Below, piece after piece: positions 7,047 through 45,352 of a DNA stretch of 56,040 bases. A model generated the notes under the pieces. That model ran no database searches. It was given only the letters and a program-made list of their open reading frames with translations, and was not told where the DNA came from. Numbering within the stretch: the stretch's first letter is position 1; each line of letters begins with the position of its first letter. Origin of the DNA: a virus (Duplodnaviria; Caudoviricetes); IMG/VR virus record IMGVR_UViG_3300045256_000426, positions 1 to 56,040 of that record; one strand, 5' to 3'. Position numbers and translations under genes: made by a program.

Positions 7047-7247
7047 TTAGCAGTCCGGGCCCGCTTCGTGACCGGAGGGATGCTCTAGATGATCCACACG
7101 TACTTCCAGGGAACGAATGCGCGTGGCGGTGTGGTTCATGATCTGCCGGTACAGATACCAGAAGGCACGGGCCCCCACCGCGATGACCATCGAGGTATAG
7201 ATGTAGCTGCCAAGTACTAGGTACTGCAACAAATCCATGGGGTGCAT
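7047..7247 (-). CDS. Small membrane protein
   Basis: 66 aa, one hydrophobic helix then coiled coil; fills the gap between flanking genes. Confidence 0.55.
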   Translation of the reverse strand: MHPMDLLQYLVLGSYIYTSMVIAVGARAFWYLYRQIMNHTATRIRSLEVRVDHLEHPSGHEAGPDC

Positions 7248-13896: not shown

Positions 13897-14406
13897 CTAT
13901 GCCATCACGTAGTTATCGAGGTACCACTTCACGAGCTCGCCAACAGGCATCTCCATCCGAGCATCCTGCTCAAGCACGAAGTAGCTGACGATCGCTTCGA
14001 CGGTTCTCTCGACGGGTTCGCTGCGGCCGTGGGCAAGGTTGGTGAGTTTGGTGCTATGCGGTTCGCCAAGCGCCTTCACGGCTAAGGTCGGATCGATGCT
14101 CGTCGGCCATCCTCTTTCGGACAACCCAATCGGGCTCATCTGCCAGACCATGGATACGCTGGAATCGGGGGGCGTGGTTTCCGCATAGAAAATAGACTCG
14201 GGGCTCGGCCAAGGGGTTTTTGTTTCGACCGTGGCCGTAGCAGACATGTCGGAGGTAGACGGCGCCAGCTCGCTGTCGGAGAGAGCCTCCGGCGCTGCAT
14301 CGCTCCCCGGTTTCCGGGTCTTCCCATCCGCACGACCACGTCTCGTGAACAGGGGGCTTCGGTACTCTCGTAGAGCGTTGGATAGCTTCCATCCTTTACG
14401 CGGCAT
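13897..14406 (-). CDS. Hypothetical protein
   Basis: 169 aa; AAGGAAGG before ATG. Confidence 0.55.
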   Translation of the reverse strand: MPRKGWKLSNALREYRSPLFTRRGRADGKTRKPGSDAAPEALSDSELAPSTSDMSATATVETKTPWPSPESIFYAETTPPDSSVSMVWQMSPIGLSERGWPTSIDPTLAVKALGEPHSTKLTNLAHGRSEPVERTVEAIVSYFVLEQDARMEMPVGELVKWYLDNYVMA

Positions 14407-14563
14407 CCTTCCTTGTCTCTTTCGTGGAAGATGGGGTTGTGGGGGAGAGGTGCCACACCACGTCGAGCTCGTTCTTCTCGTTCAGGGTGTGGTGTGGGAG
14501 AAAACAGGACTCGCCATTGCAGCAGGGGCAGCCACAGTAGGGGGGCCGAGGTAGGGGGAGCAT
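14396..14563 (-). CDS. Small Cys/His-rich protein (55 aa, not in ORF track)
   Basis: Manual translation MLPLPRPPYCGCPCCNGESCFLPHH...; fills the gap in the operon. Confidence 0.4.
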   Translation of the reverse strand: MLPLPRPPYCGCPCCNGESCFLPHHTLNEKNELDVVWHLSPTTPSSTKETRKDAA

Positions 14564-14593
14564 GGGGAGGGGGGAGAGGGGTGGGTGGGTGGA

Positions 14594-14800
14594 TTACGCG
14601 GGTTGGAAGTAGCGACCCAGCAGCGTCTTATCGACCGCGCGCATCCCACCGCAGTATCCACAGCGGAACACCCAGACACCCGGCTTGTAATTCGGACCGA
14701 ACGATGGGTCGGCTTCCCGCAAGGGGCGCATCTCACGGCGGCACTCGTTGCCACTCGGAAGGATCGTCATGCAGCGTGGAAGAAGGTAGCGACGGGACAT
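14594..14800 (-). CDS. Small Zn-binding protein
   Basis: C...C and CGYCGG; starts just after the terminase stop. Confidence 0.6.
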   Translation of the reverse strand: MSRRYLLPRCMTILPSGNECRREMRPLREADPSFGPNYKPGVWVFRCGYCGGMRAVDKTLLGRYFQPA

Positions 14801-14803
14801 CTT

Positions 14804-16522
14804 CTAGCTCTGCATCCAGTTCGCGATGGCCTTCTTGGCCTTCTCGCGAAGAATCGTTTGGATTCGTTTCTTGCCGGTCTGGTCGAAGCCGGAAACGATG
14901 GAGAGCCCGTGGTCGGGAGCCTCGGTCCCATCCTCCCGGGTGTATACCCGCGCTGCCGCCGCTCCGATATGGTTCTCTTCGCGCGTACGCAGCGCCAACA
15001 GCAACGCGAGGACCCGGTCGTCGTGCCCTACCTCGGCCTCGTACTTGCCGTTATCCTGGCGGGAGAAATGCTTGATCTCGTCGAGCGTGCTGCTGTCGTG
15101 GAGCGTGATGAGGCGCGTATTGATCGCGCGACGACCCGCTTCGATGAGGAGCGGACGGCTGTAGACGTTGGTGACCCAGCCCCACAACTTGGCGTTCGCT
15201 TTCTGGAAATGGTCAGGCTTACCACGCCAGGGATGGAACCGGGGGTAGTTGTGGACCCGGAGCAGATAGTCCTGGATCGCGAGGCCCGTGCTCTGCACCT
15301 CGACGTTGACGATTGCGGTGTTGTACCAGCGCCCTAGCTTGTTGATGATACGGGACATGTCCCAAGGGGCAATGGCACCGTGGACGATCGCGACCTGTTC
15401 GATCGTATCCATGTCGAGGACCTGGGCGCAGGCGTAGTCGCCGGTTTCTTTGCCCTCGCGATATACGAAGCCGGTATCGACGCCGATCGCGTACTGGTGG
15501 CCGGCCTGCGGCCTCTTCCAGATCTGGATCTCACCGGACGCGTCTTCGAGTAGCTGATCTCCATGACAGGTCAGCCGCTCGGCCGGTGGCTTGATGTTGG
15601 GCTGCTGGGCGAGGATCGCGAGATGATCGAATGCCGGGAGCCCTCGGCTGATGAAGGCTTCCTCGGCCGTCGAGGGATATTCCTGGTGGAACATCTCGAT
15701 CATGCCTTCGCAGGTTGTCGCGATCTGGTTGCGCCGCCAACGGAGACTGCGGCCGTCGAGCCCAAGATCGCCGAAGACCTTCACCAGGAGTTTCTCTTCC
15801 TCGTCCCACTCGGACTCCGGGACCGGCGGGTCCTCCCGGTACTTCGGCATGATGAACCACGGGATGAAGATGGGACGGAAACGAGAGCGCCCATCTACCG
15901 CCATCTTCCATTGCTTGTAGAAGAGCTCGCCTTGCCCGGCGACCCCGTTCGCCGTACTCTCCAGGATGAAGATCGTATCGGGTAGATACGGTACCGCCTG
16001 CGACAACCCGACGAACACTTCCGGGTGAGGCCAGAACGCAAGCTCGGAGGCATGGACGCAGGTTTGCGTGGTACCTCGGCCCTTGCTCGCGATACCGGCG
16101 GAGATAACCTTGAACCGCGAAACACCGCCCGGCAGCGGAAGCACGAGCTCTTTCATCTTCGAGGGTGTAAGCTTCGGCAGCGGCAGGTAGTCGTAGAACC
16201 GCTTGGCCGTCTCGAAGATCGCCGTTGTGCTATCGAGGTCCTGGGCGATGACGAGGCTGTGTGTATTGGCGTGTTCGAGGGTACGTGTGAAGACGAGGGC
16301 CTCGAAGAACGTACTCGCGTAGACCTGACGCCCCTTGAGCACTATGAACCAGAGCGGATCGTGGTTATCGAGACGAGGAGCGATCGGCCTCCACAGGATC
16401 TTCTGGCTATCCGAGAAACGAAGAGGGACGATACGACTCCGTTCGTCTCGGATGAAGAGACCCTGCATCGCCCGCAGGTACGCTGCGGAGCGAGACAGGC
16501 GGGGGGTAGAGACGGCGGTTAT
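14804..16522 (-). CDS. terL: Terminase large subunit (first ATG at 16468; possible ATA start at 16522)
   Basis: LKGRQVYAST Walker A variant, VHASELAFW Walker B, ILESTANG coupling motif, RNase H-like IGVDTG...GDY...HDDRVLA. Confidence 0.95.
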   Translation of the reverse strand: MTAVSTPRLSRSAAYLRAMQGLFIRDERSRIVPLRFSDSQKILWRPIAPRLDNHDPLWFIVLKGRQVYASTFFEALVFTRTLEHANTHSLVIAQDLDSTTAIFETAKRFYDYLPLPKLTPSKMKELVLPLPGGVSRFKVISAGIASKGRGTTQTCVHASELAFWPHPEVFVGLSQAVPYLPDTIFILESTANGVAGQGELFYKQWKMAVDGRSRFRPIFIPWFIMPKYREDPPVPESEWDEEEKLLVKVFGDLGLDGRSLRWRRNQIATTCEGMIEMFHQEYPSTAEEAFISRGLPAFDHLAILAQQPNIKPPAERLTCHGDQLLEDASGEIQIWKRPQAGHQYAIGVDTGFVYREGKETGDYACAQVLDMDTIEQVAIVHGAIAPWDMSRIINKLGRWYNTAIVNVEVQSTGLAIQDYLLRVHNYPRFHPWRGKPDHFQKANAKLWGWVTNVYSRPLLIEAGRRAINTRLITLHDSSTLDEIKHFSRQDNGKYEAEVGHDDRVLALLLALRTREENHIGAAAARVYTREDGTEAPDHGLSIVSGFDQTGKKRIQTILREKAKKAIANWMQS

Positions 16523-17178
16523 GGGAGGGGGATCCTTCCTAGTTGGCCGGCGGCCTGCTCGGCCGCGCTACGATCGAGGATGTTCTGTGCCATGTGGTGT
16601 AGGGCTTGGTGCCAGGGCAGCCACGTAGAATCCGGGTAGGCCGGCGTGACACCCTTCTCCATCATGCGCGTGAAGATCGGGTAGCCATACTTTTCGGGCA
16701 TCCCGAACTGGCCACGGTTCACGCTGTAAAGTCCATGTAGGGCTTCGTGGACCATAGCAAGGGGACGATCTGCCGGGTTGAGCTTCGGGAGCGCCTGGAG
16801 AAGAACATCGGTACCTTCGGGGATAATCCCGAGTCTCGCGGCTTCCGGCGTCAGATTTCGATTCAGCATCCACGCAAGAGGTAGCCGATCCCCGGCTTGA
16901 TTGAGAAACTGCTGGACAACCGGGGGAACATCGTGTATCGTCGAGAAGGTAAACTTCGCGGGATTACGCGCGAGGGCGGAGTACACACGTGGTGCTACCT
17001 GCCGTAGCTCGCTGGCGAGCGGATGCATCGGGTTCGTCACGATCGCCGGAGAGGGCGCCAGTCCCGCGTTTGGATCGCGGGCTCCCGCGCGGATGATGGC
17101 ATCTACCCACGGAATCCCCGTGGGCTTGAACGAATCATCGAGACGCAACGGCGCGTCGGGGGTACCAGCGTATGGCAT
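16519..17178 (-). CDS. HExxH zinc-metallopeptidase-like protein
   Basis: AMVHEALHGLY motif. Confidence 0.55.
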   Translation of the reverse strand: MPYAGTPDAPLRLDDSFKPTGIPWVDAIIRAGARDPNAGLAPSPAIVTNPMHPLASELRQVAPRVYSALARNPAKFTFSTIHDVPPVVQQFLNQAGDRLPLAWMLNRNLTPEAARLGIIPEGTDVLLQALPKLNPADRPLAMVHEALHGLYSVNRGQFGMPEKYGYPIFTRMMEKGVTPAYPDSTWLPWHQALHHMAQNILDRSAAEQAAGQLGRIPLP

Positions 17179-17196
17179 GGGCGAAGGAGGGGTGGG

Positions 17197-17376
17197 CTAG
17201 TTGTCGTTCTCGGCGCCGCTCGGCCAACCCACGCCGGGCTGCGTGTCCTTGCTCTCGTTCCGGTCTCTCTGAGCTTCGTTGCTCATCTGCCGCTCGTTGC
17301 CCATGGCGCTAAGCAGATGCTCCATGTCTGCGGACTTCCGTCCCGTCTTGATGAAGGCACTACCTCGTTTCGACAT
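17197..17376 (-). CDS. Small hypothetical protein
   Basis: AAGGGG before ATG at 17376; 59 aa. Confidence 0.5.
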   Translation of the reverse strand: MSKRGSAFIKTGRKSADMEHLLSAMGNERQMSNEAQRDRNESKDTQPGVGWPSGAENDN

Positions 17377-17788
17377 ATGCTTCCCCTTCTTCCTCTTCGG
17401 CCTCGGCCTCTTCTTCGTCCATGAATTCGCTCGCGTCGAACGGCACCGCACCGTCGTAGACGGAGCCGGACGCGGAATCTTCTTTCGCGCGGTAGTCACC
17501 CTGATCGGGCAGCACGTCCACGTTACCGTGCAGGTAATCCTGGTACCGCTCCCAGATCTCCCGGTCGAAAGCACCGCGCGCCTTCTCTTCGGCGACGGCC
17601 GCGAACATCGCGTGGCGGTCGCTCTCGATCGCCAGCTTGAGCAGGGAATAGGCATTACAGAAACCCGATAGGGTCTCCCAATCCGTGAGCACCTTGTCGC
17701 GCAGGGCCTCGAAGCCCTTCACGCGACCCTTCTCGGCGATGGTCTTCGGGATATCCCGGAAGAAACCGGCAGGACTAGTGCGGGCCAT
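17360..17788 (-). CDS. Hypothetical protein with acidic C-terminus
   Basis: GGAGGG SD; 142 aa. Confidence 0.6.
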   Translation of the reverse strand: MARTSPAGFFRDIPKTIAEKGRVKGFEALRDKVLTDWETLSGFCNAYSLLKLAIESDRHAMFAAVAEEKARGAFDREIWERYQDYLHGNVDVLPDQGDYRAKEDSASGSVYDGAVPFDASEFMDEEEAEAEEEEGEAYVETR

Positions 17789-17790
17789 TT

Positions 17791-18072
17791 CTACCCCTCC
17801 TCGGCGAGCAGCGAGGATGCGAGTCTACGCGCTGCCATTCGACGTTCCGACAGGGCGAGATCCTCATCGCTCTTGTAGAACGCCTTCCGGAACTTGAGCT
17901 CCTGCCAGATCTCCTGTTGATCCTGGGCCAGCTTCGTAATATCCGCCCGTACGACCGTCCACGGCTTGTACACGTAGCGATAGACCACGTAGGCAACGCC
18001 TACCGTCGTGAAGAGCCATGCGGCGGACATGAAGCCAAGAAGGATTTCCATGTGGTACCTCGTAGTATCCAC
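17791..18072 (-). CDS. Single-pass membrane protein
   Basis: Hydrophobic ILLGFMSAAWLFTTVGVAYVVY then coiled coil. Confidence 0.6.
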   Translation of the reverse strand: MDTTRYHMEILLGFMSAAWLFTTVGVAYVVYRYVYKPWTVVRADITKLAQDQQEIWQELKFRKAFYKSDEDLALSERRMAARRLASSLLAEEG

Positions 18073-18094
18073 TCCCGGGGCGGGATGGTACTAC
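18073..18094 (-). promoter_or_regulatory. GTAGTRCCATCCCGCCCCGGGA motif, minus-strand copy
   Basis: 21 of 22 bases identical to the copies within 21669-21704 and 22513-22548; intergenic, just downstream of the sigma gene. Confidence 0.5.
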
Positions 18095-18121
18095 TCGTCT
18101 ATCGTCCTCTCGTCTATCGTC

Positions 18122-19312
18122 CTAACGAGGCGTTGGTTCTTGTGGGGTTGGAGGGAGGGAATCTAGGAACGAGGCGGCGGCGGGGTCCGCCGGCGCGATC
18201 TTGTCCGGGGACAGGGAGCCACGAGGAGCACGCGCGGGCTTTTTCGGCGGAGCAGCGATGGGCTCGCCGGCGAGTTCGTTGATGATGCTGCGAATCTTAT
18301 CGAGTGCCTGGTTGTACTGCTGGGCGAGTCGCTGCTGGCGGACTCCCATCTGTCGGGCGATGGCCGAGACGCTCTGTCCGCCTTGGACGGCGAGGAGGAG
18401 CTCCCGGTCCTTCGGGTCGAGTTGTCCTAGGGCCTTGTCGAATAGCTGGTACTTTTCTTGGTCTCCCGCCGCTTGGAATACCTTCTCGACGTCGGGAGCT
18501 ACAGACAGTTCCGGGCGCGGCTCGGCCCTGGGAGATTGTTCGCCGCCGGGGATAGGACGAAGGCGGATCCAGCTTTTCTTCGACTCGGTAGTGGGAGCGA
18601 ACTCTGGTGTCTGGAAGGGAGATACCGGGTTCGGGCGGTCTATTCCCGCGAGAACATCCTCGACTTCCTGCTGGGAAATCGGGGTACCCGTTCGGTTGAG
18701 ATACTTTGTGATGCCGGCGGAAGACGGCTCAAACCCGCCGTACTTCGCGGAAGCGGCGCGCAGCTTGTCTTGCGCTGCTCGCACCATCTGGGCCTTATCC
18801 AAGAACTCTTCCGAAGGGGGGACAATCCGATTTATCGACTGCGCCCATCGCTTGACATCCCGTTGCATCTTGGGATAGATCCAATTGGCAAACTCTTCCA
18901 GGTTCTCTTCGATGGGCTTCCCGAAGTTGGCGGCATTCTCCGTATAGCTACGAAGGGCTTCCTGTATCGCGTCCGAGCGCATCGAAGGATTGCCGACGCT
19001 GTAGCGCCGGGAGATGGAACGAACGAGCGGAACGATCCGCTGGGGGAGGGAAGACAACGCTTGGGAGGTCCTGGAGAGCGCTTGTGGGGCCCTGGCGGCG
19101 CCGGGCCCGACGAGGGTCGCGAGACCGACGATATCCCGTAGTGTATCGCCCACGCGAGTACCTACCGTCTCCTGCGATGGTGTCTCCGCGGGGAATATAA
19201 CATCCCGCATGAAGTGGGAAAAGTCCTCGAGGGAGATCGGGCTCTGGGACGAGTAGACGTCGAGCGCCTGACTCTCGGGATCGACTCGCGGGGTGGTGGC
19301 CGCTACGGGCAT
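18122..19312 (-). CDS. Sigma70-family (FliA/SigB/WhiG-like) RNA polymerase sigma factor with N- and C-terminal extensions
   Basis: Region 2-like LVRSISRRY...SDAIQEAL...FANWIYPKM; region 3-like EPSSAGITKYL...ISQQEVEDVL; region 4 ALGQLDPKDRELL...SVSAIARQMGVRQQRLAQQYNQALDKIR. Confidence 0.8.
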   Translation of the reverse strand: MPVAATTPRVDPESQALDVYSSQSPISLEDFSHFMRDVIFPAETPSQETVGTRVGDTLRDIVGLATLVGPGAARAPQALSRTSQALSSLPQRIVPLVRSISRRYSVGNPSMRSDAIQEALRSYTENAANFGKPIEENLEEFANWIYPKMQRDVKRWAQSINRIVPPSEEFLDKAQMVRAAQDKLRAASAKYGGFEPSSAGITKYLNRTGTPISQQEVEDVLAGIDRPNPVSPFQTPEFAPTTESKKSWIRLRPIPGGEQSPRAEPRPELSVAPDVEKVFQAAGDQEKYQLFDKALGQLDPKDRELLLAVQGGQSVSAIARQMGVRQQRLAQQYNQALDKIRSIINELAGEPIAAPPKKPARAPRGSLSPDKIAPADPAAASFLDSLPPTPQEPTPR

Positions 19313-19318
19313 GGGATC

Positions 19319-19885
19319 CTAGTGGGTCGATAGGGCAAGGATGGGGTATTGCCGGTTGGGAAGGCAGCTGTGGGTACGGAGGGATACCTGGTTGATCCGG
19401 TCGCGAATGCTGCCATGGGTGATCTCGGGCTCGTCGATATCCCGATTGGCGATCTGGGCGAGGTGCCGAAACGTCTGCTCCGCCACCGCCGTGCCGTCGT
19501 ACCCCAGGTTGCACATCCAGGTCGCGGCTAGTACATCGGCCTCCTGTTCCAGGTCCGCGCTGGCCATCTGGTACAGCCGGCCGTCCTGCCACTGGATGCA
19601 GTGCCCGAGCTCGTGGAGGAGAACGAAGAACTGCTCGTCGGGTGGCATCTGTTCCTGTAAACCTGTGGAGAACGCGATCAGGACGTGGACGTTCCCGTTG
19701 TCGTCGCCTTCTAACGCCATGAACGCATTGGGGAAATCGTCGTCATAGGAACCGAAGGTAACGTTCCGGCAGCCTACCCACCGGGCGAGAGTCTGCGGGT
19801 CCCAGCCGGGTTCGAGCGAGACGGCCGTCGGCGTGGTGACTACGCAGAGAGCCACCAGCAAAAAAGCGAGCAAAATACGCCGCAT
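19319..19885 (-). CDS. Exported M48-like (HtpX/Oma1-type) zinc metalloprotease
   Basis: Signal peptide MRRILLAFLLVALCVV; PNAF, VLLHELGH, EQEAD, GYD, THG...RI in M48 order; likely start ATG 19885. Confidence 0.8.
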   Translation of the reverse strand: MRRILLAFLLVALCVVTTPTAVSLEPGWDPQTLARWVGCRNVTFGSYDDDFPNAFMALEGDDNGNVHVLIAFSTGLQEQMPPDEQFFVLLHELGHCIQWQDGRLYQMASADLEQEADVLAATWMCNLGYDGTAVAEQTFRHLAQIANRDIDEPEITHGSIRDRINQVSLRTHSCLPNRQYPILALSTH

Positions 19886-19923
19886 ATAGCATCGCTGGTG
19901 GTCTCTGGTGCAGGACGGTTTTC

Positions 19924-20628
19924 CTACTCGACTGAGAGACCCGCCTGAGTAGGGCCGGTGGGCGCAGTGCCCGAGGAGGGCGGGTGGTCGTGCTCGTCTC
20001 CCCATTTCCACTCGTGGCCTTCCCATCGGAGGACGGCAAAGCCACCGGGGGCAATGGGATCTTCGTCCCGAAGAAGAACCTTCCCGGGGGGTTCGTGGAG
20101 GACACCGTTGACCCCATGTTCGAACAGGGCACGAACCACACGAACGTTCCGGGAATGGGTGATCAGGGCGATCGGAAAGGGAGCTGCCTGTGCGAACAGG
20201 AACAGCTGCGACAAGGCAGAAAGGAAGCGTTCGGCGAAGGTGAGGTAGCTTTCGCCTCCCGGTGCCGGCGTGGCCTTGTCGACCAGCAGCGCTTGGAGTT
20301 TGTCCTTGATGGCGTCGACTGGTTGGCCGGTGTAGCGGCCGACGTCCCACGGCCGGAACGCCGGACTGGGGAGGATGGGGGCCGGGGTCGGGAGGGCCTG
20401 TCGGATAATCTGGGCGGTTTCGATCGCCCGGAGCAGATCCGACGAGAAGAGAACCCGGGGGTTGTAGGTCGCGATCGCCGGCGCGAGCTTACGAACGGTA
20501 GCCTGGCCTTTCGGGTCCAGGGGAACGTTCTGCCAGCCCCGAATGCGCTCCCGGCCGAGATTCAGCGCCGTTTCCCCGTGTCGGACGAGAAGAACGAGGG
20601 GAGACGGGGAGGGTGGTACGTCCGGCAT
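19924..20628 (-). CDS. Histidine phosphatase (phosphoglycerate mutase family)
   Basis: LVRHGETALN, SSDLLRAIETA, PGGES, LITHS motifs. Confidence 0.9.
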   Translation of the reverse strand: MPDVPPSPSPLVLLVRHGETALNLGRERIRGWQNVPLDPKGQATVRKLAPAIATYNPRVLFSSDLLRAIETAQIIRQALPTPAPILPSPAFRPWDVGRYTGQPVDAIKDKLQALLVDKATPAPGGESYLTFAERFLSALSQLFLFAQAAPFPIALITHSRNVRVVRALFEHGVNGVLHEPPGKVLLRDEDPIAPGGFAVLRWEGHEWKWGDEHDHPPSSGTAPTGPTQAGLSVE

Positions 20629-21208
20629 GTTCGAGTATTTTCTTGCGGCCGAGGAGGCGAAGAAGACGGGGATGAACCGCCTCCACGACCTGGGTGTCTT
20701 TGCGTTTACGGCGAGCAGCCCAGGCGGGCGCCATTCGAGCCCGCTTCATGTCGGGGGTGTAGGTAGCCCAGGTACGCTTGGAGAGGGCGGACTGCTTGAG
20801 GAGCCAAAGATGCCGTCGCCGAACGAGGGGGTCGCGGTGGTCCGCACCCGGGGGACACAGGCAGCGTGCTGTACCCCGGTTCCCAGCAGCCTCTGTACGG
20901 GCCGCTAGGGGGTCTAGAATCGACGATCGGCGAGGGGGCCGTACTTGGATATCCCCCAAACGCTCCTGGGGGCGTTTCCGGCCCGCTAGCAGCCGTTCGT
21001 AGGCGGCGAGGTCTTTCTGGAACCGTCGGAGCAGCCTTCGGAGGGGAGGGGAGGAGGAGACGAGGGGTTCTACCTTGCGCCAGGCAACGCTGCGGGGGAT
21101 GCCGCTGGCGAGGTCTTTCCGAAGGCCCTCGACGACGCGGGGGAGAGCGGAGCTACCGGGATCGAGGTCGGGGTTTGCGGGAGGTACGGATCTTCGAGGG
21201 GAGTCGAT
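20489..21208 (-). CDS. Basic hypothetical protein, first gene of the minus arm; probable ATC start
   Basis: Frame open from ~21235; protein-like sequence well upstream of the first TTG at 20959; overlaps the phosphatase gene by 140 bp. Confidence 0.4.
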   Translation of the reverse strand: MDSPRRSVPPANPDLDPGSSALPRVVEGLRKDLASGIPRSVAWRKVEPLVSSSPPLRRLLRRFQKDLAAYERLLAGRKRPQERLGDIQVRPPRRSSILDPLAARTEAAGNRGTARCLCPPGADHRDPLVRRRHLWLLKQSALSKRTWATYTPDMKRARMAPAWAARRKRKDTQVVEAVHPRLLRLLGRKKILEHAGRTTLPVSPRSSRPTRGNGAESRPGAHSGLAERSPGPERPGYRS

Positions 21209-21297
21209 AAGCCACGAATGCTCCGATGGGGGGGACTACGTGGTACCACGATGGGGGGCGGGCACTACACGAGGAACGGGATACTACACCTGCGCAT

Positions 21298-21306
21298 AGT
21301 ATACCA
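21298..21306 (-). promoter_or_regulatory. Extended -10 promoter candidate for the minus-strand arm
   Basis: TGG-TATACT on the minus strand; no clear -35. Confidence 0.45.
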
Positions 21307-21668
21307 TACCGTACCAGATGGGAAAGGACCCGAAATGCCGTGGAAGGTGCCGTCACCACAACGATTCCCCTCGGACACGAGGACCCCTTGACAAGGTACT
21401 GGAACGACTCCTCGGGGCATCGTTGTGGGGGGGACTACGGGGGGACCCCGGTGCTGGAACTACGGGAAAAGACAGGGAAAGGACGGGGGGAGGAGTATCC
21501 CGAAAAAGGGGGTGGGATATCCCAAAAAAGGGGGAGGGGTACTCCGAAAATTTTCTAGGCCCAAAATTCTCGTGATGATCCCGGCCCCGGGGTCCCGTGG
21601 AGCGGTTCCTTGGGGAGTGGGCTCGGCGCTGCATGGCCGCATACCCCACGGGACCAGGGTGGGCAGGG

Positions 21669-21704
21669 TGGGGAAGCGAGGGTAGTGCCATCCCGCCCCG
21701 GGAT
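21669..21704 (+). repeat. 36-bp direct repeat, copy 1 (copy 2 at 22513-22548)
   Basis: TGGGGAAGCGAGGGTAGTGCCATCCCGCCCCGGGAT identical in both copies. Confidence 0.9.
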
Positions 21705-21769
21705 CTCAATACTACGAGGTACCTATCCCGGCTCCCGAGGCTCCCGAGGGAGGAAGGAGGAAGAGGAAG

Positions 21770-22180
21770 ATGATGGAGCAAGACCCGTGGGAAGAGCTGG
21801 ACCGATGCGAGACCGCCGATGAGATCGCGGAGCTGCTGCGGAGGCTCGGTATACGAGGCATCCCCGCGGACCCGCGAGCCTGTCCCCTGGCCGTAGCTAC
21901 CGGATGGAGGGTCGTGGCTGACGCCGCGTGGACGGTTGAGGATGCGGAGACGCTGCGCGGCTACATCAGCAGCGGGTGCTGTAACTACGACGAGCTGACT
22001 CCTGGAGAACGCGAGATAGTACGCTCGCGTTATGGTCGGTCCGACTACCGGCCGGACCACCGTTTCGTCTACTGGGAGCGCGACCTAACGCAAGCGCAGA
22101 CCGACTTCGTTCGTGGGCTCGACTCGGGCGACTACCGCGACCTCCTCCACCGAAAGGCTACCAGGTACGCATACGCCTAG
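21770..22180 (+). CDS. Hypothetical protein, paralogue of 27749..28039 and 25625..25795
   Basis: Strong SD; WEELDxCETADxIAxLLRR...ACPLAVATGW shared with 27749. Confidence 0.75.
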   Translation: MMEQDPWEELDRCETADEIAELLRRLGIRGIPADPRACPLAVATGWRVVADAAWTVEDAETLRGYISSGCCNYDELTPGEREIVRSRYGRSDYRPDHRFVYWERDLTQAQTDFVRGLDSGDYRDLLHRKATRYAYA

Positions 22181-22199
22181 GTCCTGGGTACCGGGGGGA

Positions 22200-22720
22200 A
22201 GGGGGCCCGAAGGGCCCCCCTACCGTGGTACCACGACGTAGTGCCAGTACGTTTAGTGCTACGAGGGTGCTACGTGGGGTACAGGGTACGTGGTACTACG
22301 AGTACTACGTAGTACAGGGTACGATAGGCTAGGGGCCCCTTCGGGGCCCCTTCGGTACCAGGGTACGTGGTACTACGAGGTACCTACGGGTAGTACGTAA
22401 GTACCACGGGGGATACGTAGTTACTACGCAGGGATACCCGTAGTGCTACGGAGTGCTACGGAAGTACGTGAAACTACGAGGGATTTCGTTGTTCCCCCAA
22501 CCTATACGACAATGGGGAAGCGAGGGTAGTGCCATCCCGCCCCGGGATTACCCCCGTAGCACCCCGTGGTGCCCCGGTAGTACCCCCGGTACCCCCCGGT
22601 AGTGCCATTCCGTCCCGGGATTACAAGCTACGCGGGGGTACCGGACGAGGAAACCGTGTTTCCACGTAATAACCCGTACTACGGGGGATACGTAGTGCCA
22701 CGTTATCCCGGGATCTCGTT
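22200..22720. repeat. GTAC/TACGTA-rich non-coding repeat array A with GC hairpins
   Basis: Dense GTAGTAC/GTACTAC/GTGCTACG units; hairpins GGGGGCCC-GAA-GGGCCCCC (~22201-22219) and AGGGGCCCC-TTC-GGGGCCCCT (~22331-22351). Confidence 0.75.
22513..22548 (+). repeat. 36-bp direct repeat, copy 2
   Basis: Identical to 21669-21704; degenerate copies at ~22598-22623 and ~22692-22717. Confidence 0.9.
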
Positions 22721-22729
22721 GTATGCGGG

Positions 22730-23020
22730 GGAAGGCCGCTTCTCTCGGCCCCAAGGTCCCACGGGCAGTACAAGGGACCGTCGGTATCCGAACCCTGCCG
22801 CGAGTATGAGGCAGGCGTGTCACAGGAGAGCAATCGTACTGTACACGGGCTAGACCAGGCGACCGGCGCCGTAGGGCGGCGTGGAACGTGACCATCTAGC
22901 CTACCGGGGAATCGACAGTGTGCGACATACGAAACCTGCCTCGCAATCCCTAGCGGATCGGCGAGAGGCTAGAAGTCTGCCTACGTTCGGACGCTCGAAA
23001 CCGAGTTTCCAGAACGGAGG
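22730..23020 (+). ncRNA. Candidate structured RNA or 5' leader
   Basis: Nested stems 22808-15/22935-42, 22838-42/22915-19, 22848-54/22895-901; hairpin 22755-79 whose loop can pair with 22795-99. Confidence 0.4.
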
Positions 23021-23028
23021 AAGGCAAT

Positions 23029-23970
23029 ATGGCCCCGAGCACCAAGAGCATCGAAGTTGTGGCCCCGCCGACGGTGGTCGAGACTCCCAAGGTCGAGACC
23101 ACTACCTCGGCCGACAACGTTTCGCTGGTCGGTTTCACCCTTGGTACCTTGATCCCGAGCATGGAAAAGGCGGGACTCGAGCCGAAGCTTGAGGCGCGCA
23201 TCGTGGACATCGGTTGCCGCGTGCAGTCGAGACTCCGCGAGTTTGCCCGGTTGCGGTCCGACATCGCCAAGACTCTGCACGCCGATCAGGTTCAGGATGT
23301 GGCCGATCTGCTGAATCTGCTGGTCACGGCGGGCATCCAGGCCGGTTCGGTCGTCTCCAAAGTCAACGAGATTTGGCGGGCGTACCTGACCGGCAGTAAC
23401 GAGGCGCAGTCGATCGTTCCCGCCGTGATCCTGAACGGCGAGGAAGTCGCGGCGCAGCGGACGGTTCCCAATCGCTTCTACCATCAGTTTTTCCGGCGGT
23501 GGAACGATCTGTCGCGGTGGCAGGCGGGAAGCAATTTCTACCGTCAGCCCACCGACACGAATGCCGGAGAGGTGTATCCGAAGGACGGCGTGAAGATCGG
23601 GGATACGGTGTACCATTTCCCGGTCGACGCGCTGCGCGACGGGCACACCCTCTCGTCGGTTCACACAGCGTTCATCAACGTCATTCGGCCACCGAAGCCG
23701 ATCGATCTGGATCGCTACATGGCCGGGCTGGAGTCGGCCGCACGGCGAGCCATGATCAACCTGAAGGTGGTGGTCAAGCCGGAATTGGGCAAGGGCGCAG
23801 GACGCACGGCGCCCCGCCGCCAGATGAGACCGATCGCCGGCAGTCTCCAGGGTATTCGCGGTGCCATGGCCGGGCTGTTGGACATGGCAAAGAAGGACGC
23901 GAAGCTGTACACGAGCATCCGCGAGTATCTCCAGAAGCAACTGGCCGACAGCACGCAGCACACCGAGTAG
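23029..23970 (+). CDS. Hypothetical early protein
   Basis: 313 aa; GGAGG SD; C/G-ending codon bias. Confidence 0.8.
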   Translation: MAPSTKSIEVVAPPTVVETPKVETTTSADNVSLVGFTLGTLIPSMEKAGLEPKLEARIVDIGCRVQSRLREFARLRSDIAKTLHADQVQDVADLLNLLVTAGIQAGSVVSKVNEIWRAYLTGSNEAQSIVPAVILNGEEVAAQRTVPNRFYHQFFRRWNDLSRWQAGSNFYRQPTDTNAGEVYPKDGVKIGDTVYHFPVDALRDGHTLSSVHTAFINVIRPPKPIDLDRYMAGLESAARRAMINLKVVVKPELGKGAGRTAPRRQMRPIAGSLQGIRGAMAGLLDMAKKDAKLYTSIREYLQKQLADSTQHTE

Positions 23971-24675: not shown

Positions 24676-24759
24676 ACCGACCCGACCTATTTCGCCGTGC
24701 CCCGCTCGTTTTTCCTGTGGATTGCGAGGCCTCGACGAGAGAAAAGCGTAGGCGAAGCC

Positions 24760-24975
24760 ATGGAACGAACACGTATCCGAGTAGGCGCGGATGGGACGGT
24801 CGTTACGGAATCGCTGCCGCGGACGGTCGAGCATGTATGCCCATCCTGTTTTGGCTTGGGCGTCGTCGTGCGGTCGGTACGCTCCCTCGACGACGGCAAG
24901 ATATGGACGAAAGATGAGCCATGCCCAGCGTGCAAGGGTGGCGGTGCATCCGTGTATACGGGCCTGTACCTGTAG
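24760..24975 (+). CDS. DnaJ-type Zn-finger protein
   Basis: CPSCFGLG and CPACKGGG. Confidence 0.65.
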   Translation: MERTRIRVGADGTVVTESLPRTVEHVCPSCFGLGVVVRSVRSLDDGKIWTKDEPCPACKGGGASVYTGLYL

Positions 24976-27097: not shown

Positions 27098-27367
27098 ATG
27101 TTCGAGTGCGAATACTGCGGTAGTCGGCAGCACCATACGATCGAATGCCCCGAGTGCGAATACTGCGGTAGTGTAGAGCTGGGCAATCCATTCGATCCGT
27201 TCGGCCTCGAAACGTGGTACGATGAAGTCATCCGGTCTGCACAACGGAAGTTGGCGGCCGCGGTCGAAACTGTTCCCGGCTACAGTACCTTTGCCAAGTC
27301 CCAGTGGACATCCGAGCTGGAGCGCATGTGGGCGCTGCCCACGAGGGAGGGGGATGAAGATGAGTGA
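27098..27367 (+). CDS. Zn-finger protein with a duplicated ECEYCGS unit
   Basis: 22-bp repeat CGAGTGCGAATACTGCGGTAGT at 27103 and 27151. Confidence 0.65.
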   Translation: MFECEYCGSRQHHTIECPECEYCGSVELGNPFDPFGLETWYDEVIRSAQRKLAAAVETVPGYSTFAKSQWTSELERMWALPTREGDEDE

Positions 27368-27752
27368 CGACGAACGTTGCGACATGCTGTTCACGTACGG
27401 TACGCTCATGCAAGGCGAGCGGTTACACCACCACCTGCACGGACGAGCGACGCGGGTGGCGACGGCGATGGTCACCGGACACCTGCTGAACCTCGGCCGC
27501 TATCCCGGCCTTATCGCCGGCGACGGCCGTGTCAGCGGCGAGCTCTATCGCGTGGACGATCCGGAACTTCTCGCCACGCTCGATCGTGTGGAAGGGCGCT
27601 ATTACGAGCGCCGACGAACCGACGTCGAGCTCTGCGACGGCCGACGGGCGTGCGCATGGATCTACTGGTACCGTGGACCGCGAGACTACACGACACCGAT
27701 CCCCAGTGGTAACTGGCGAAACCGCGAACCTATCTCGAGGGAAGAAGGATGA
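27360..27752 (+). CDS. Gamma-glutamylcyclotransferase (AIG2-like)
   Basis: LFTYGTLMQG, YPGL, VSGELY, LDRVEG..YERR, AWIY. Confidence 0.9.
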   Translation: MSDDERCDMLFTYGTLMQGERLHHHLHGRATRVATAMVTGHLLNLGRYPGLIAGDGRVSGELYRVDDPELLATLDRVEGRYYERRRTDVELCDGRRACAWIYWYRGPRDYTTPIPSGNWRNREPISREEG

Positions 27753-28039
27753 TGGAGACTAAGCACAACAAGACCCTAACGTGGGAAGAACTCGACAAGT
27801 GCGAGACAGCCGATGCGATCGCGGATCTGCTGCGGCGTCACGGAGTACGTGGCGTCCCCGGCCAGCCGGAAGCGTGCCCACTCGCGGTGGCAACGGGATG
27901 GTCGGTTTCCGGTAGGGTAGCGTGGCTGGGCGAGCACCGTCTAACCCCTGCGGAGAGCGCGTTCGTCGCTCGGGTCGACGCCGGAGAGTATCCGGATTTG
28001 GCGGAGGTGGATCCCCGGGAGTACGGCGAGGGGGCATGA
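27749..28039 (+). CDS. Hypothetical protein, paralogue of 21770..22180
   Basis: Shared WEELDKCETAD...CPLAVATGW and FVxxxDxGxYxDL. Confidence 0.75.
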   Translation: MMETKHNKTLTWEELDKCETADAIADLLRRHGVRGVPGQPEACPLAVATGWSVSGRVAWLGEHRLTPAESAFVARVDAGEYPDLAEVDPREYGEGA

Positions 28040-28740
28040 TCATGTACGAAACGGTAATCTACAAGATCACACGATCAGACCTAACGACCCATAACGGCTA
28101 CCAATGGGTCATTGGGGAAACACGTGAATTTCCCGGTACTGGGGATCTCTGTGGGCCTGGGTATGCCTACGCCTACGAGAGCGCACAGCTGGCACTGCTC
28201 TTGAAATTCATTCACGTCGACTATGACCCCTACTGCCTACTCCGAGGTCGCGGGGTCATCGTCAAGCGGGATGGGCAACTCAAGGCGGGATGCTCGCGTC
28301 TTACGCTGCTAGAGAGGATTACCGTACCCGACATCACGCTGGAGCAGCGCGTAACCTTCGCGGTGTTGAGCGCCCGCGCTGTCCACACGGGGAATCGCTG
28401 GGCGTCCTGGGCGGAGAGGTGGCTCGATGGTACCGACCGCTCGGCGGAGTCGGCGGAAAAGATGGAGCGCGCGGTGGCGGCGTTGGTAAGGACTCGATGG
28501 ATGAAGGCGGCAACGCGGGCATGGGAGGCGGAGGCGGCACGGCGGGCAGCGGATTCGGCGAGGTGGGCAGCGGATTCGGCGCGGGCGGCGGAGCGGGGAG
28601 TCCAGGTGGCGGCGCGGGCAGCGCGGGCAGCGCAGGCGGCGGTGCATGCAGCGCAGGCGGCGGGGCGCTCGCTCAACCTCGCGGTGATCGCGCGGGAAGC
28701 GCTACTTCCGTGGGAGCCGGAAGGGGGAGGGAACTTCTGA
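28036..28740 (+). CDS. Hypothetical protein with Ala-rich repeat C-terminus
   Basis: YKIT...GYQW...LCGPG N-terminal domain; WAERWLDGTDRS followed by AARxA repeats. Confidence 0.7.
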   Translation: MIMYETVIYKITRSDLTTHNGYQWVIGETREFPGTGDLCGPGYAYAYESAQLALLLKFIHVDYDPYCLLRGRGVIVKRDGQLKAGCSRLTLLERITVPDITLEQRVTFAVLSARAVHTGNRWASWAERWLDGTDRSAESAEKMERAVAALVRTRWMKAATRAWEAEAARRAADSARWAADSARAAERGVQVAARAARAAQAAVHAAQAAGRSLNLAVIAREALLPWEPEGGGNF

Positions 28741-28814
28741 CATGGGAAGAACTAGAGTATTCGGATTTGGTGGAAGCGCGGGCAAGCGCTTGGGAGGAGG
28801 ATAACGGAGCATGA
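28737..28814 (+). CDS. 25-aa acidic peptide, probable CTG start
   Basis: GGAGG SD, CTGA overlap with the upstream stop, ATGA overlap with the downstream start. Confidence 0.4.
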   Translation: MTWEELEYSDLVEARASAWEEDNGA

Positions 28815-29053
28815 AGAAAAAGAAGAATACCACGCGTTCGTCTCCGAAGCTGGGCGCCGCGGTGAGAATCCTCGTAACCGCCGGAGGCTACGACCTTGCC
28901 GATGGGGAACGGTTTTCCCCTCCGATACCAGCCGGCACCATTGGTCGTTACGACGGACCGTACCCTGACCCCAAACTCGCTGCCGAAGATTGGCACGTCG
29001 TGAGGATCGGCAGTGTGGTGGTGCCGCTCCATCGGAATCACTTCGCCGTGTGA
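28811..29053 (+). CDS. Hypothetical protein
   Basis: GGAGG SD; 80 aa. Confidence 0.6.
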   Translation: MKKKKNTTRSSPKLGAAVRILVTAGGYDLADGERFSPPIPAGTIGRYDGPYPDPKLAAEDWHVVRIGSVVVPLHRNHFAV

Positions 29054-29131
29054 GCGCGGTGTACGCCTAGCGGGAGGCGGTGACCGTAAGTACCTATAAA
29101 TCCTAGCGAAAAGGGAGGACGAGCAGAGCAG

Positions 29132-29275
29132 ATGAACCTATCCCCATGCGCGTTGTGTGCGAACCGTATCGCCCATCTACACATCCCTACCAACACACCG
29201 ATCTCCGTGGAGGACGAGTACGAGGACTATTGGTTCGACCGACCGGAGTGGGATGAGGATGGAGGCAGCGAATAG
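29132..29275 (+). CDS. Small acidic protein (47 aa, not in ORF track)
   Basis: GGAGG SD; CALC...HLH then acidic tail. Confidence 0.45.
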   Translation: MNLSPCALCANRIAHLHIPTNTPISVEDEYEDYWFDRPEWDEDGGSE

Positions 29276-29279
29276 GGGG

Positions 29280-29936
29280 ATGCGAACGATCACGTTTGCC
29301 CCCCAGAAGAGGTTCTTCGAGGGTATCAACTACGGCTTCCAGTATAGCCTACTGGACCCGAAGTACGTGGCCTACCACGCGCCGGTCCAATGTAAGGACT
29401 TCCTGTCCGATGCGTTCTGGTCCGAGTACACCCGGACCGAGATAGTAGATGTCTACGGCTTCTCCTGGAAGCCAGGGACGTTGTCTCCTTTTCCTGCTCC
29501 CGTTTACCGACTGGGGATCATCTACAAGGAGCAGGACATGCAAGCGTGGGTCGGGCCCCTCGCCGCGTTCCTCAACGAATGGGAGAGGCGCTTGGGCTTC
29601 GCCGCGTCCGAGGTCGACCCCGCGAACGGCGGCAAGGCGACCGCTATTACGTTCTCTTGTGAGTGGACTCGAATGCCAATCTTGTTGTCGGCGTTCTTGT
29701 GCTTTGTCCGGTTGGGTGTGACATACGACCCGCGCATGTCGCTGGGGGACTACCTAGAGAACGCGAAGACTTCCCTCACAGGTGTTGATCTCGATTACCT
29801 CCGCGCCCCACAAGCGGTCCCCCGCGTCCAACGCCTTCTACGTGGTGATTCGAACTTTCGCCAGACGTGGACACAGTACACCGACGTCTACACTGTCCAC
29901 GGCTACTCCGGAATCCGCAATGCGGTGAACGTATGA
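29280..29936 (+). CDS. Hypothetical protein, possibly amidoligase-cluster associated
   Basis: CKDFLSDAFW and W..MP.LLS...FVRLG; upstream of the ligase cluster; family not certain. Confidence 0.6.
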   Translation: MRTITFAPQKRFFEGINYGFQYSLLDPKYVAYHAPVQCKDFLSDAFWSEYTRTEIVDVYGFSWKPGTLSPFPAPVYRLGIIYKEQDMQAWVGPLAAFLNEWERRLGFAASEVDPANGGKATAITFSCEWTRMPILLSAFLCFVRLGVTYDPRMSLGDYLENAKTSLTGVDLDYLRAPQAVPRVQRLLRGDSNFRQTWTQYTDVYTVHGYSGIRNAVNV

Positions 29937-30385
29937 TCAAGACGACAAGAAAGAAGAAACCGTTCGTCCCACCTTCGTGGTGGACGAACCTGCCGGATTG
30001 GGCACGGTGTTTGATCGTCTGGCGCAAGAGCTGCCAGCGCCATGCGCTAACCGCGCACGCCCTCGCCAGCCTATGCCAACGTCCAGTAAAGACGGTTCTC
30101 CAGGAGCTCATAGAGGCGCCAAACACACAAGTCTATTTCTGTTATACGATCCATGCTCCTGTCTGGCACGTCTACCGGAGTATGACCTTTCCCTACAAGA
30201 GTATGTTTGTAGACGAAGCGAAGTACCTCGCCCAGAAATACCCCAAGGCGGAGAGCATCGAAAACGGCGCACCATCTGCCCTAACCGCTCGTCTAACGTC
30301 CAGACAGATTGAGCTCCTACAACGGGTCGCAAAGGGGTACATGCCAACCAAGTTACGATGGATGAGGGATACACCGCAATGGTGA
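29933..30385 (+). CDS. Hypothetical protein
   Basis: ATGA overlap with the upstream gene. Confidence 0.6.
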   Translation: MIKTTRKKKPFVPPSWWTNLPDWARCLIVWRKSCQRHALTAHALASLCQRPVKTVLQELIEAPNTQVYFCYTIHAPVWHVYRSMTFPYKSMFVDEAKYLAQKYPKAESIENGAPSALTARLTSRQIELLQRVAKGYMPTKLRWMRDTPQW

Positions 30386-30675
30386 AACCGTACAAGCCGC
30401 CGCCACCACCGGCGGACGAGACTCCGTTCTGTCCAAAATGTCAGTCGGATCTCTGTGTAATCGAGGAGCCGGGCAAGGGCGTCTACATCTGTTACGATTG
30501 CAACGCCTTCCTCGACGCGAACGGGATGATGCTACCCGCTGCTTTGTTCTGGGGGATCGTGCGCGGGAAGTACAAGGCCCCGAAACGGGGAGGGATGATA
30601 CCTTCGCCTTCCCTCCCAGCCCACCCAACCCCAGGAGAATTGCGAGAAGTACAGACGATTGACTCGGGGTGGTAG
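30379..30675 (+). CDS. Zn-ribbon protein
   Basis: CPKC...CYDC. Confidence 0.65.
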   Translation: MVKPYKPPPPPADETPFCPKCQSDLCVIEEPGKGVYICYDCNAFLDANGMMLPAALFWGIVRGKYKAPKRGGMIPSPSLPAHPTPGELREVQTIDSGW

Positions 30676-30678
30676 GCG

Positions 30679-31389
30679 GTGGACACCTACGTCATTGTCG
30701 GAGTACTCGGTTTCCTTGGTGGTTTACTAGCTAGACTAGGGAAAGGAGGCGAAAGGAGAAAGAGAATGGCAACTCAATCCCACCCGAACACACAGGGGCT
30801 ATCGTTCTCGGGGTATGGTAAGTGTGCTCGGCAAAGCTGTCCCTACACGCACTACCTTTGCTCCCTGAACTACTGCGGACGGTGCTGTCGGGAGTTCCAT
30901 AAGGAAATCCCCGAGCACCAAAAAGGGAACTCCTTCCCTCCAACACCAGACCCGGCCCCTCTCGAACAGGACCCCGTCCGCTGCCCGGAAAGCATTTACG
31001 ATTCCGCATGGCGGCACCTCGAACATAGCTACCGTCACCACTGTAGGCTGGCACCGGGGCATTACGGTTGGCACAACTGCGACTGTACGTATAGCTGGCG
31101 TAGCGGACGGCCTGGCCGGGGGACGACACCGCCACCCGGACCCCCGCTATCTCACGAGGTTGTCGGCGATCCGACGTGCGGTGTGTGCCGCACCGCGCCC
31201 TACGATATTCCGTGCGCGAGGCACGCGAAGCCCAAGACCATGGACTCGCCGGCGCCGCCGACCCCGACTACGCTCAAACCGGCCACGACCATCGATTGGC
31301 CGTGGGAGTTCCAGACATCGTCCTATACCAACACAAGGGAGGAGGTGCTGAAAAGCCCGATCTTCGCTGACGCGGAAGCGAAGCTATAG
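30679..31389 (+). CDS. Cys/His-rich multi-Zn-finger protein (alternative start ATG 30766)
   Basis: Many C/H clusters including CRLAPGHYGWH; N-terminal TM if the GTG is used. Confidence 0.6.
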   Translation: MDTYVIVGVLGFLGGLLARLGKGGERRKRMATQSHPNTQGLSFSGYGKCARQSCPYTHYLCSLNYCGRCCREFHKEIPEHQKGNSFPPTPDPAPLEQDPVRCPESIYDSAWRHLEHSYRHHCRLAPGHYGWHNCDCTYSWRSGRPGRGTTPPPGPPLSHEVVGDPTCGVCRTAPYDIPCARHAKPKTMDSPAPPTPTTLKPATTIDWPWEFQTSSYTNTREEVLKSPIFADAEAKL

Positions 31390-31418
31390 AACGAACGAAC
31401 GAAAGGAGGAAAAGAAGC

Positions 31419-32414: not shown

Positions 32415-32433
32415 GGGAAAGGAGGCTACTACT

Positions 32434-34595: not shown

Positions 34596-34622
34596 ACCGT
34601 ACCACGAAAGGAGGGGAACACT

Positions 34623-36986: not shown

Positions 36987-37020
36987 AAGGGCACCTTCCG
37001 GGTGATATGATAGGGGAGAG

Positions 37021-45259: not shown

Positions 45260-45352
45260 ATGGACTACTTCTGGTGGGCGCGATGGTTCGTCGCCCAAAT
45301 TGCGATAGGAGTGATGGCGTTTTGGACTCTGCGCGTATTTCGCCTGCTGTAA
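45260..45352 (+). CDS. 30-aa membrane peptide (not in ORF track)
   Basis: GGAGG SD; MDYFWWARWFVAQIAIGVMAFWTLRVFRLL. Confidence 0.5.
   Translation: MDYFWWARWFVAQIAIGVMAFWTLRVFRLL

Follow-up and report, generated by a model that had tools for sequence, protein, structure and literature searches.

The DNA analyzed here (the window) is the whole of IMG/VR record IMGVR_UViG_3300045256_000426, a stretch of 56,040 bp from an uncultured phage of the class Caudoviricetes, and its subject is a minus-strand gene at positions 18122 to 19312 whose product of 396 residues is very probably a sigma factor of the sigma-70 family. The gene lies within a cluster that runs from a histidine phosphatase through an M48-like protease, the sigma gene, a membrane protein, small proteins, and a protein with an HExxH motif to terL. 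A first-pass annotation of this DNA had read the genes in this order and placed them at the head of the morphogenesis arm; both statements hold, in that all of the genes are on the minus strand and the sigma gene is the third gene of a leftward arm of virion genes. From its N terminus to its C terminus, the protein comprises an N-terminal module, sigma-2, a sigma-3-like region, a disordered linker, sigma-4, and a proline-rich tail. The new finding is that the N-terminal module, to judge by the protein sequences, is duplicated on a large late protein encoded on the same arm.

The early description of the 396-residue protein as sigma70-like is borne out by a curated family model, by a profile search of the PDB, and by structural matches from Foldseek and VIA-align, all to sigmas. 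The NCBIfam model of the sigma-70 family, TIGR02937, scores 49.9 bits against a curated cut-off of 42.9 (E 2.7e-13) and aligns with residues 85 to 342 over nearly the whole profile, from sigma-2 to sigma-4. The Sigma70_r2 signal (18.5 bits) occurs at this gene only across the whole record. When a profile of the sigma and its homologue P0003 (described below) was searched against the PDB, sigma factors made up the best 16 of 50 rows, and the profile is colinear with Taq SigA: query positions 89 to 224 fall on SigA 95 to 218 (regions 2.1 to 3.1) and positions 283 to 345 on SigA 251 to 318 (region 4).

Structural comparisons draw on an AlphaFold2 (AF2) model with an overall predicted local distance difference test (pLDDT) score of 47.3, which is confident only at residues 168 to 225 and 285 to 350 and reaches 71 to 79 in most of sigma-4. 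Among the Foldseek matches listed, 48 of 48 rows are entries holding a sigma factor, in alignments that span 270 to 390 columns of full-length sigmas; the template modeling (TM) scores are low, the cause being the arbitrary arrangement of domains in the sigma model. The helix-turn-helix domain of sigma-4 (residues 280 to 351; positions 18260 to 18475, minus strand) is matched by VIA-align at Z 8.8 to 9.9 to the sigma-4 domains of SigL, SigK, WhiG, SigW, BldN, and sigma-E, the best nine rows all being sigma-4 and the best match SigL (Z 9.9, root-mean-square deviation 2.8, 72 residues aligned). Matches at Z 7.4 to 8.8 are to sigma-3, or to sigma-3 plus sigma-4, of SigB, sigma-32, and SigA. In particular, residues 164 to 229 match sigma-3 of Thermus thermophilus SigA (Z 7.4) as well as sigma-3 plus sigma-4 of SigB and sigma-32, and in the alignment with Taq SigA they fall on region 3.0-3.1.

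Because the domains follow the order sigma-2, sigma-3-like region, disordered linker, and sigma-4, the architecture is of the group-3 type and not that of a two-domain extracytoplasmic function (ECF) sigma, which has sigma-2 and sigma-4 only, joined by a short linker; here, the spacing between the two is about 120 residues. The group-3 sigmas (SigB/SigF/FliA/sigma-32) share this order, and the best full-length structural rows include Staphylococcus aureus SigB and sigma-32, but the model of the SigBFG subfamily reaches only 22.7 bits against a cut-off of 234, and the N-terminal module and the proline-rich C-terminal tail are additions of the present protein.

The sigma is an extreme outlier, almost an orphan, from a hot-spring mat phage without close relatives. 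Among 1.84 billion representatives, only three proteins match at E ≤0.001, namely, the sigma itself, P0003, and P0004, the last of which is an ordinary ECF sigma whose match is confined to region 4. P0003 (346 residues, 29% identity, E 7e-15), which is encoded on a contig of 50,928 bp, is the sole homologue beyond region 4 and lies above the Pfam cut-offs for Sigma70_r4_2 (39 bits) and r4. A search of 5.8 billion proteins returned the sigma alone at first and then the sigma together with P0003. No match emerged from tblastn of the sigma against phage records, and no relatives were found in scans of viral contigs with the sigma, P0003, and terL or in a scan of metagenome contigs with the sigma alignment.

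The N-terminal part of the protein had been described as an extension of about 85 residues with a hydrophobic stretch. The extension is present and forms a distinct conserved module, and the stretch, DIVGLATLVGPGAA, is there as well, but at KD19 1.06, the stretch is too weak for a transmembrane helix and, by its hydropathy, is not a membrane anchor. The module proper covers residues 24 to 105 (positions 18998 to 19243, minus strand), including a region 2.1-like helix, PLVRSISRRY, and is paralogous to residues 64 to 150 of the large late protein (BLASTP 82 bits, E 2e-22, 47/113 positions identical, or 42%); its identity is 51% both in a search of the phage's own genome and in an alignment (A2). 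The gene for the large late protein starts at base 771 on the minus strand, so that its N-terminal part occupies positions 1 to 771, with the copy of the module at bases 322 to 582 followed by Pro/Ala/Thr-rich linkers that carry RLRYGPEG motifs. It continues, in a frame kept across the overlap of the contig ends, into positions 56040 to 53650, which encode the C-terminal part, and the whole protein has about 930 residues if the contig ends overlap.

The stretch shared by the two proteins ends in the helix PLVRSI(S/A)(R/Q)R(Y/F), where Sigma70_r2 begins, and the paralogy runs on, more weakly, into a region 2.2-like segment (DAIQEA / DIVEKA). The module is predicted to consist of a pre-sigma-2 segment plus the region 2.1 helix. 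P0003 also has an N-terminal extension, of about 70 residues, which begins with the same residues and contains a hydrophobic stretch, although the similarity is weak; a profile of the module searched against longer proteins found only itself. We also considered sigma region 1.2 as the identity of the module and dropped it: PF00140 has no candidate in the record, and hhalign against Escherichia coli sigma-70 aligns the 2.1 helix only, with just the last 16 residues of the module falling on sigma-70 residues 379 to 394 (E 0.15, not significant).

The same two proteins also share a short motif. The pattern R[LAI][RL]xxPxG is confined to the two module-bearing proteins, with 5 hits (the copy in the end overlap counted twice) against 0.25 expected in shuffles, and was chosen post hoc. 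Sites lie at residue 250 of the sigma and at residues 190 and 242 of the large late protein, in disordered proline-rich linkers; the aligned position in P0003 reads RALAGPGG. We treat this sharing as a lead only.

The gene for the large late protein is situated downstream of the tail genes and before the lysis genes. In the Atlas, the protein resembles viral clusters of 860 to 880 residues, and two of the best three carry PF18857 (LPD38, a domain of polyvalent proteins), on 61% and 63% of their members (score 0.96). The protein has no Pfam or PHROG match, and the LPD38 profile was silent in a scan of the phage's own genome, a weak test given that the control genomes were silent too. That this is an internal/ejection protein or an LPD38 protein is a lead only, drawn from its position and from one match in the Atlas.

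On the side of the sigma gene facing the start of the arm lie two enzymes. The first gene of the leftward arm (19924 to 20628, minus strand) encodes a 234-residue phosphatase of histidine phosphatase branch 1 (PGAM/CobC-like), in which His_Phos_1 extends over residues 12 to 169 (Pfam E 1.1e-28) and the RHG motif is found in LVRHGET, the features by which the family is recognized. Its best NCBIfam match is to alpha-ribazole phosphatase (E 1.4e-19) and lies far below the cut-off, and it also matches PHROG 12933, a group of unknown function. The second gene (19319 to 19885, minus strand), which starts with the ATG at 19885 and not at 19852, encodes a small M48-like zincin of 188 residues with the HtpX-like core NAF...STGL...HELGH, followed by EQEAD, an ExxAD motif that presumably carries the third zinc ligand. 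The Pfam Peptidase_M48 model reaches 26.1 bits (cut-off 20.3), but only over profile positions 28 to 77 of 186 (50 positions); further matches are to the PHROG 87 metalloprotease (E 1.3e-5) and to an HtpX homologue in the PDB (E 0.059). There is one hydrophobic segment only, at the N terminus (peak KD19 2.49, residues 4 to 22), which at the sequence level agrees with the first-pass description of this protein as exported, whether by a signal peptide or on an anchor, and the catalytic domain should thus lie outside the cytoplasm. Because its predicted active site is outside the cytoplasm and the sigma is soluble, the M48-like protein is a poor candidate to cut the sigma.

On the other side, toward terL, the next gene (17791 to 18072, minus strand) encodes a single-pass membrane protein of 93 residues, or 86 residues from the ATG at 18051, with KD19 1.69 at residues 12 to 30 and a helical C-terminal tail; from its position only, it is a possible anti-sigma. 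Of the two small proteins earlier placed beyond it, one is a solid open reading frame (ORF) encoding an acidic protein of 142 residues (17360 to 17788, minus strand), whereas the other is a doubtful ORF of 42 codons (17197 to 17325, minus strand). Neither the membrane protein nor the 142-residue protein has a Pfam, PHROG, or NCBIfam match. Immediately upstream of terL, positions 16519 to 17178 (minus strand) encode a protein of 219 residues, predicted to be cytoplasmic, that has an HExxH motif (HEALH) at residue 144 and is without a hydrophobic segment (KD19 0.74). It returned no sequence match in Pfam, PHROG, NCBIfam, or the PDB; its Atlas leads, to M26, M85, and M35 by features (0.91) and to M78/ImmA-IrrE by structure (TM 0.46 by query, 0.60 by row), are all too weak to assign it to a family, and its AF2 model (pLDDT 46.6) is unusable. 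Of the two metalloproteases originally proposed to flank the sigma, one is thus M48-like by a Pfam match over part of the profile, and the 219-residue protein, with its HEALH motif and weak Atlas leads, is a candidate zincin. HExxH itself occurs 3 times in 72 chosen ORFs of the record, against 0.33 expected from composition, and two of the three occurrences are inside the sigma cluster. We describe the phosphatase and the two HExxH proteins as neighbors of the sigma, any functional tie to which is hypothetical. The cluster ends with terL (14804 to 16468, minus strand; Pfam Terminase_6C, E 6.6e-7; PHROG_2, E 4.8e-15), for which tblastn gives terL matches in 507 phage records, none above 30% identity.

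The record is listed as linear, and CheckV puts its completeness at 69%. Upon inspection of its ends, positions 5 to 369 correspond to positions 55676 to 56040, up to the end of the contig, at 97.3% identity (10 mismatches, 0 gaps), and the open frames at both ends are in register across this overlap. Because the contig ends overlap by 365 bp, the genome is probably complete, circular or terminally redundant, about 55.7 kb in length, and assembled with a variant overlap, rather than the 69% fragment of the CheckV estimate; it is less likely that the overlap represents a true tandem repeat of 123 residues in the large late gene. Near-identical DNA was found in hot-spring and microbial-mat metagenome runs, with no RNA run among those listed.

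Two arms make up the genome. The leftward arm, of about 29 kb, extends from 20628 through the contig junction to about 47879 and encodes, by Pfam and PHROG matches, terL, a portal of the SU10/PHROG_156 type, scaffold, capsid, tail and virion proteins, two large orphan proteins, DUF5675, and a holin of the gene transfer agent (GTA) type. The rightward arm, from about 21770 to 47756, encodes a primase, a DnaB-like helicase, PolA, uracil-DNA glycosylase, an exonuclease, RuvC, a MazZ-like domain, and a phiEco32-type block of amidoligase, glutamine amidotransferase, and GGACT genes. The arms diverge from a control region of about 2 kb that is non-coding and rich in repeats, with the sigma gene nearby. 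Known phages are distant, at no more than 30% identity for terL and 24 to 32% for the capsid; the capsid relatives include Mx8 and Mx9, and the terL relatives are at about 30% identity. No sigma occurs in the terL neighborhoods of the nearest terL and capsid relatives, distant as these are.

Between the sigma gene and the gene for the membrane protein, we recognize an intergenic element (18051 to 18123, minus strand) composed of a 15-nt unit repeated twice in tandem after the sigma stop codon (18094 to 18123), a 23-nt motif with a short palindrome, and an ACGAGG ribosome-binding site. The 23-nt motif, GTAGTRCCATCCCGCCCCGGGAT, has 4 matches against 0 expected, and the three besides the one downstream of the sigma gene precede rightward genes in the control region, all on the plus strand. 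The octamer at the 5' end of the motif, GTAGTRCC, has 18 sites in the window against 2.15 expected: 9 are in the control region at 21.2 to 22.7 kb (including repeat arrays), 5 are at 37.0 to 37.7 kb (four of them in an array at 37.0 to 37.3 kb), and 4 are single, two of the latter being on the minus strand at 18087 to 18094 and 17356 to 17363. Because the repeat and the GTAGTRCCATCCCGCCCCGGGAT/GTAGTRCC elements follow the sigma gene and the latter recur upstream of plus-arm genes, they suggest a regulatory break after the sigma gene, with the phosphatase, M48-like, and sigma genes forming a unit of their own beside the divergent control region.

Scans of positions 14000 to 23100 detected no minus-strand terminator after the sigma gene and, for sigma-70-type promoters, 2 sites against 1.7 expected, none of them in the control region; Rfam returned no RNA family. 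No ORF with a family match lies in positions 20629 to 21769, and the 12 candidate ORFs that were scanned within the control region (20489 to 23192) all lack a Pfam match. Within this region, three tandem 22-nt units (GGGGGAGGAGTATCCCGAAAAA) occupy positions 21486 to 21551, and non-coding arrays of repeats with a 10-nt period (ACGTAGTACC and relatives), which are candidates for origin iterons or for operator or promoter arrays, occupy positions 22180 to 22780 and, elsewhere, 37020 to 37280. Another octamer, TTCGTTCC, has 8 sites against 2.19 expected, 7 of the 8 on the minus strand, and shows no conservation outside the octamer itself. Its minus-strand sites at 7110, 8201, 10541, and 11629 include three in gaps between late genes and one inside a small ORF (7047 to 7247).

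No RNA polymerase family was detected among the ORFs scanned with Pfam or PHROGs, and the DxDxD motif was found in none of the five large ORFs scanned for it. Because no phage polymerase was detected, the sigma most likely redirects the host core polymerase. According to the reading that we favor, and that we consider moderately probable as a whole, the protein would bind host core RNA polymerase and direct it to phage promoters of middle or late genes, as with phiEco32 gp36, and the N-terminal module would serve as a conserved partner-binding or targeting domain common to the sigma and the ~930-residue protein. Several observations weigh against this reading. Each of the Pfam sigma domains falls below its gathering score (r4_2, 22.6 against 25.7 bits; r4, 20.6 against 24.1 bits; r2, 16.6 to 18.5 against 24 bits); sigma-2 is backed by sequence only, the AF2 pLDDT being below 50 over residues 1 to 167; the homologue count is one, P0003; and the enriched octamers GTAGTRCC and TTCGTTCC are without any link to this sigma, so that no promoter motif is established.

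The duplicated module could also be read as a loading or ejection domain, such that the sigma and the ~930-residue protein would be made late, packed in the head, and delivered with the DNA, redirecting the host polymerase at once. We consider this rather unlikely. The module is kept at 42 to 51% identity in two otherwise unrelated proteins, as would befit a signal for virion cargo, and the ~930-residue protein is encoded where podoviruses keep their internal proteins and resembles LPD38-bearing viral clusters (an Atlas lead only). The sigma gene belongs to the virion arm, the post hoc motif R[LAI][RL]xxPxG is confined to both proteins, and accounts of packaged effectors (PMC5512222) and of a sigma in a virion proteome (PMC10585845) have been published. 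Nevertheless, LPD38 was not found by a hidden Markov model search, no prohead protease family was found among the head-module ORFs (Pfam, PHROG), and the module takes in the region 2.1 helix, an element of the sigma fold and not a detachable tag; moreover, early expression fits equally well for a sigma at the head of its arm beside the control region. Overall, the shared module lends the packaging idea modest support.

That the protein is no sigma at all, and instead a DNA-binding regulator or a small terminase with a sigma-4-like helix-turn-helix, is quite improbable. The subthreshold Pfam scores are compatible with this, as are the presence of the gene about 1.6 kb upstream of terL, with no small terminase identified (Pfam, PHROG), and the occurrence of LuxR, KorA, and response-regulator helix-turn-helix domains among the weaker matches. 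But TIGR02937, above its cut-off, covers both sigma-2 and sigma-4; the protein is colinear with SigA in regions 2 and 3; the Foldseek alignments run over hundreds of columns of full-length sigmas; and four genes intervene between the sigma gene and terL.

Sigmas with a removable N-terminal extension have precedents in pro-sigma-E and pro-sigma-K of Bacillus and in pro-BldN of Streptomyces, and the module could likewise keep the present sigma inactive until a phage zincin cuts it off, thereby timing late transcription. Consistent with such gating, the extension of ~85 residues in the sigma has a counterpart in its sole homologue, P0003, two HExxH proteins are encoded within 3 kb, and the 219-residue HEALH protein, the more plausible protease of the two, has Atlas leads of the ImmA/IrrE type, a family that cuts regulators. 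We nevertheless hold this reading to be very doubtful. The M48-like protein is exported and the sigma is without a membrane segment, which leaves the pair poorly matched in topology; neither candidate belongs to the membrane-embedded proteases of the site-2 or SpoIIGA type; and the 219-residue protein is without any family assignment. Neither the membrane protease of the SpoIVFB/SpoIIGA type nor the membrane-associating pro-sequence of such systems has an equivalent here, with KD19 values of 0.74 for the 219-residue protein and 1.06 for the sigma stretch, so that the extension is not membrane-active by hydropathy. In addition, it is duplicated on a protein that is not a sigma, and gating of the sigma would leave that copy of the module unexplained.

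Regions 2.1 and 2.2 are the main contact of sigma-70 factors with the beta-prime clamp helices, and the module (pre-2.1 plus regions 2.1 and 2.2) could be a polymerase-docking domain by which the ~930-residue protein attaches to host RNA polymerase and serves as a decoy or a tether. That the paralogous stretch reaches the region 2.1 helix and, at weaker similarity, the region 2.2-like segment would agree with this, but there is only a slight chance that it is correct, given that Sigma70_r2 is silent at the ~930-residue gene even at E 10, that Sigma70_r1_2 is silent across the whole record, and that the hhalign comparison with E. coli sigma-70 is not significant.

Phage sigmas are a known route to the takeover of host transcription, also encoded by SPO1 and T4, and the presence of the gene is in itself no surprise. 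The closest parallels to the reading that we favor, in which the sigma acts on host core polymerase, are phiEco32 gp36 and SU10 gp32: both phages encode an ECF-type sigma that has its own promoter motif and is used with host core RNA polymerase (PMC4281155; PMC12276001). The likeness lies in a podovirus-encoded factor of the sigma-70 family, here predicted to retarget the host polymerase, and extends, in the present phage, to COOH-NH2 ligase genes of the phiEco32 type and to a portal with a weak match to the SU10 type. However, SU10 gp32 is given as about 26 kDa, whereas the present sigma has 396 residues, with a sigma-3-like insert and the 85-residue N-terminal module; the sigmas of phiEco32 and SU10 are listed among the middle genes, whereas this one heads the virion arm; and no partner like phiEco32 gp79 was identified in this phage.

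Early effectors that are packaged in the particle include T4 Alt and internal proteins with a capsid-targeting sequence, the N4 virion RNA polymerase, and polyvalent proteins (PMC5512222); in phage Arash, the sigma gp10 is reported from the virion proteome along with the phage's own polymerase subunits (PMC10585845). What the present phage has in common with these is an N-terminal element shared by virion-arm proteins, together with a large late protein that resembles LPD38-bearing viral proteins (an Atlas lead). T4-type cargo, however, combines a short leader with a prohead protease, as opposed to a module of ~85 residues and head-module ORFs among which no family of prohead protease was found. 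Arash also differs in packaging a polymerase of its own, of which the Pfam and PHROG scans of this phage gave no sign.

A literature search on this theme returned no case of a small podovirus in which a sigma and a large late protein have an N-terminal module in common. The most far-reaching proposal, which we regard as unlikely, is that a podovirus of ~56 kb without a polymerase of its own uses one 85-residue module, on the sigma and on a 930-residue internal protein, for head loading or polymerase docking, with the sigma delivered together with the DNA and capturing the host core before phage expression begins. Were the module indeed a loading or polymerase-docking domain, it would constitute a new cargo signal and a new route of early takeover. 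The duplicated module offers a testable handle on the question of whether polymerase-less phages deliver transcription factors in the particle.

Several features of the rightward arm deserve mention in their own right. Positions 27222 to 36391 hold a phiEco32-type block for peptide or metabolite modification, consisting of GGACT, two COOH-NH2 ligases, a class-II glutamine amidotransferase, and an ATP-grasp-like protein. At 45274 to 46199, the N-terminal domain of a MazZ-like dATP/dGTP diphosphohydrolase (E 4.9e-26) lies beside a weak nucleoside 2-deoxyribosyltransferase-like ORF, a pair that hints at nucleotide-pool editing or DNA base modification (no search was aimed at PurZ). Finally, a small zinc-ribbon protein (CXXCXGXG) encoded at 24697 to 24975 is weakly matched by a PHROG annotated as a Q-like antiterminator (E 9.2e-5) and may be a second transcription regulator of this phage.

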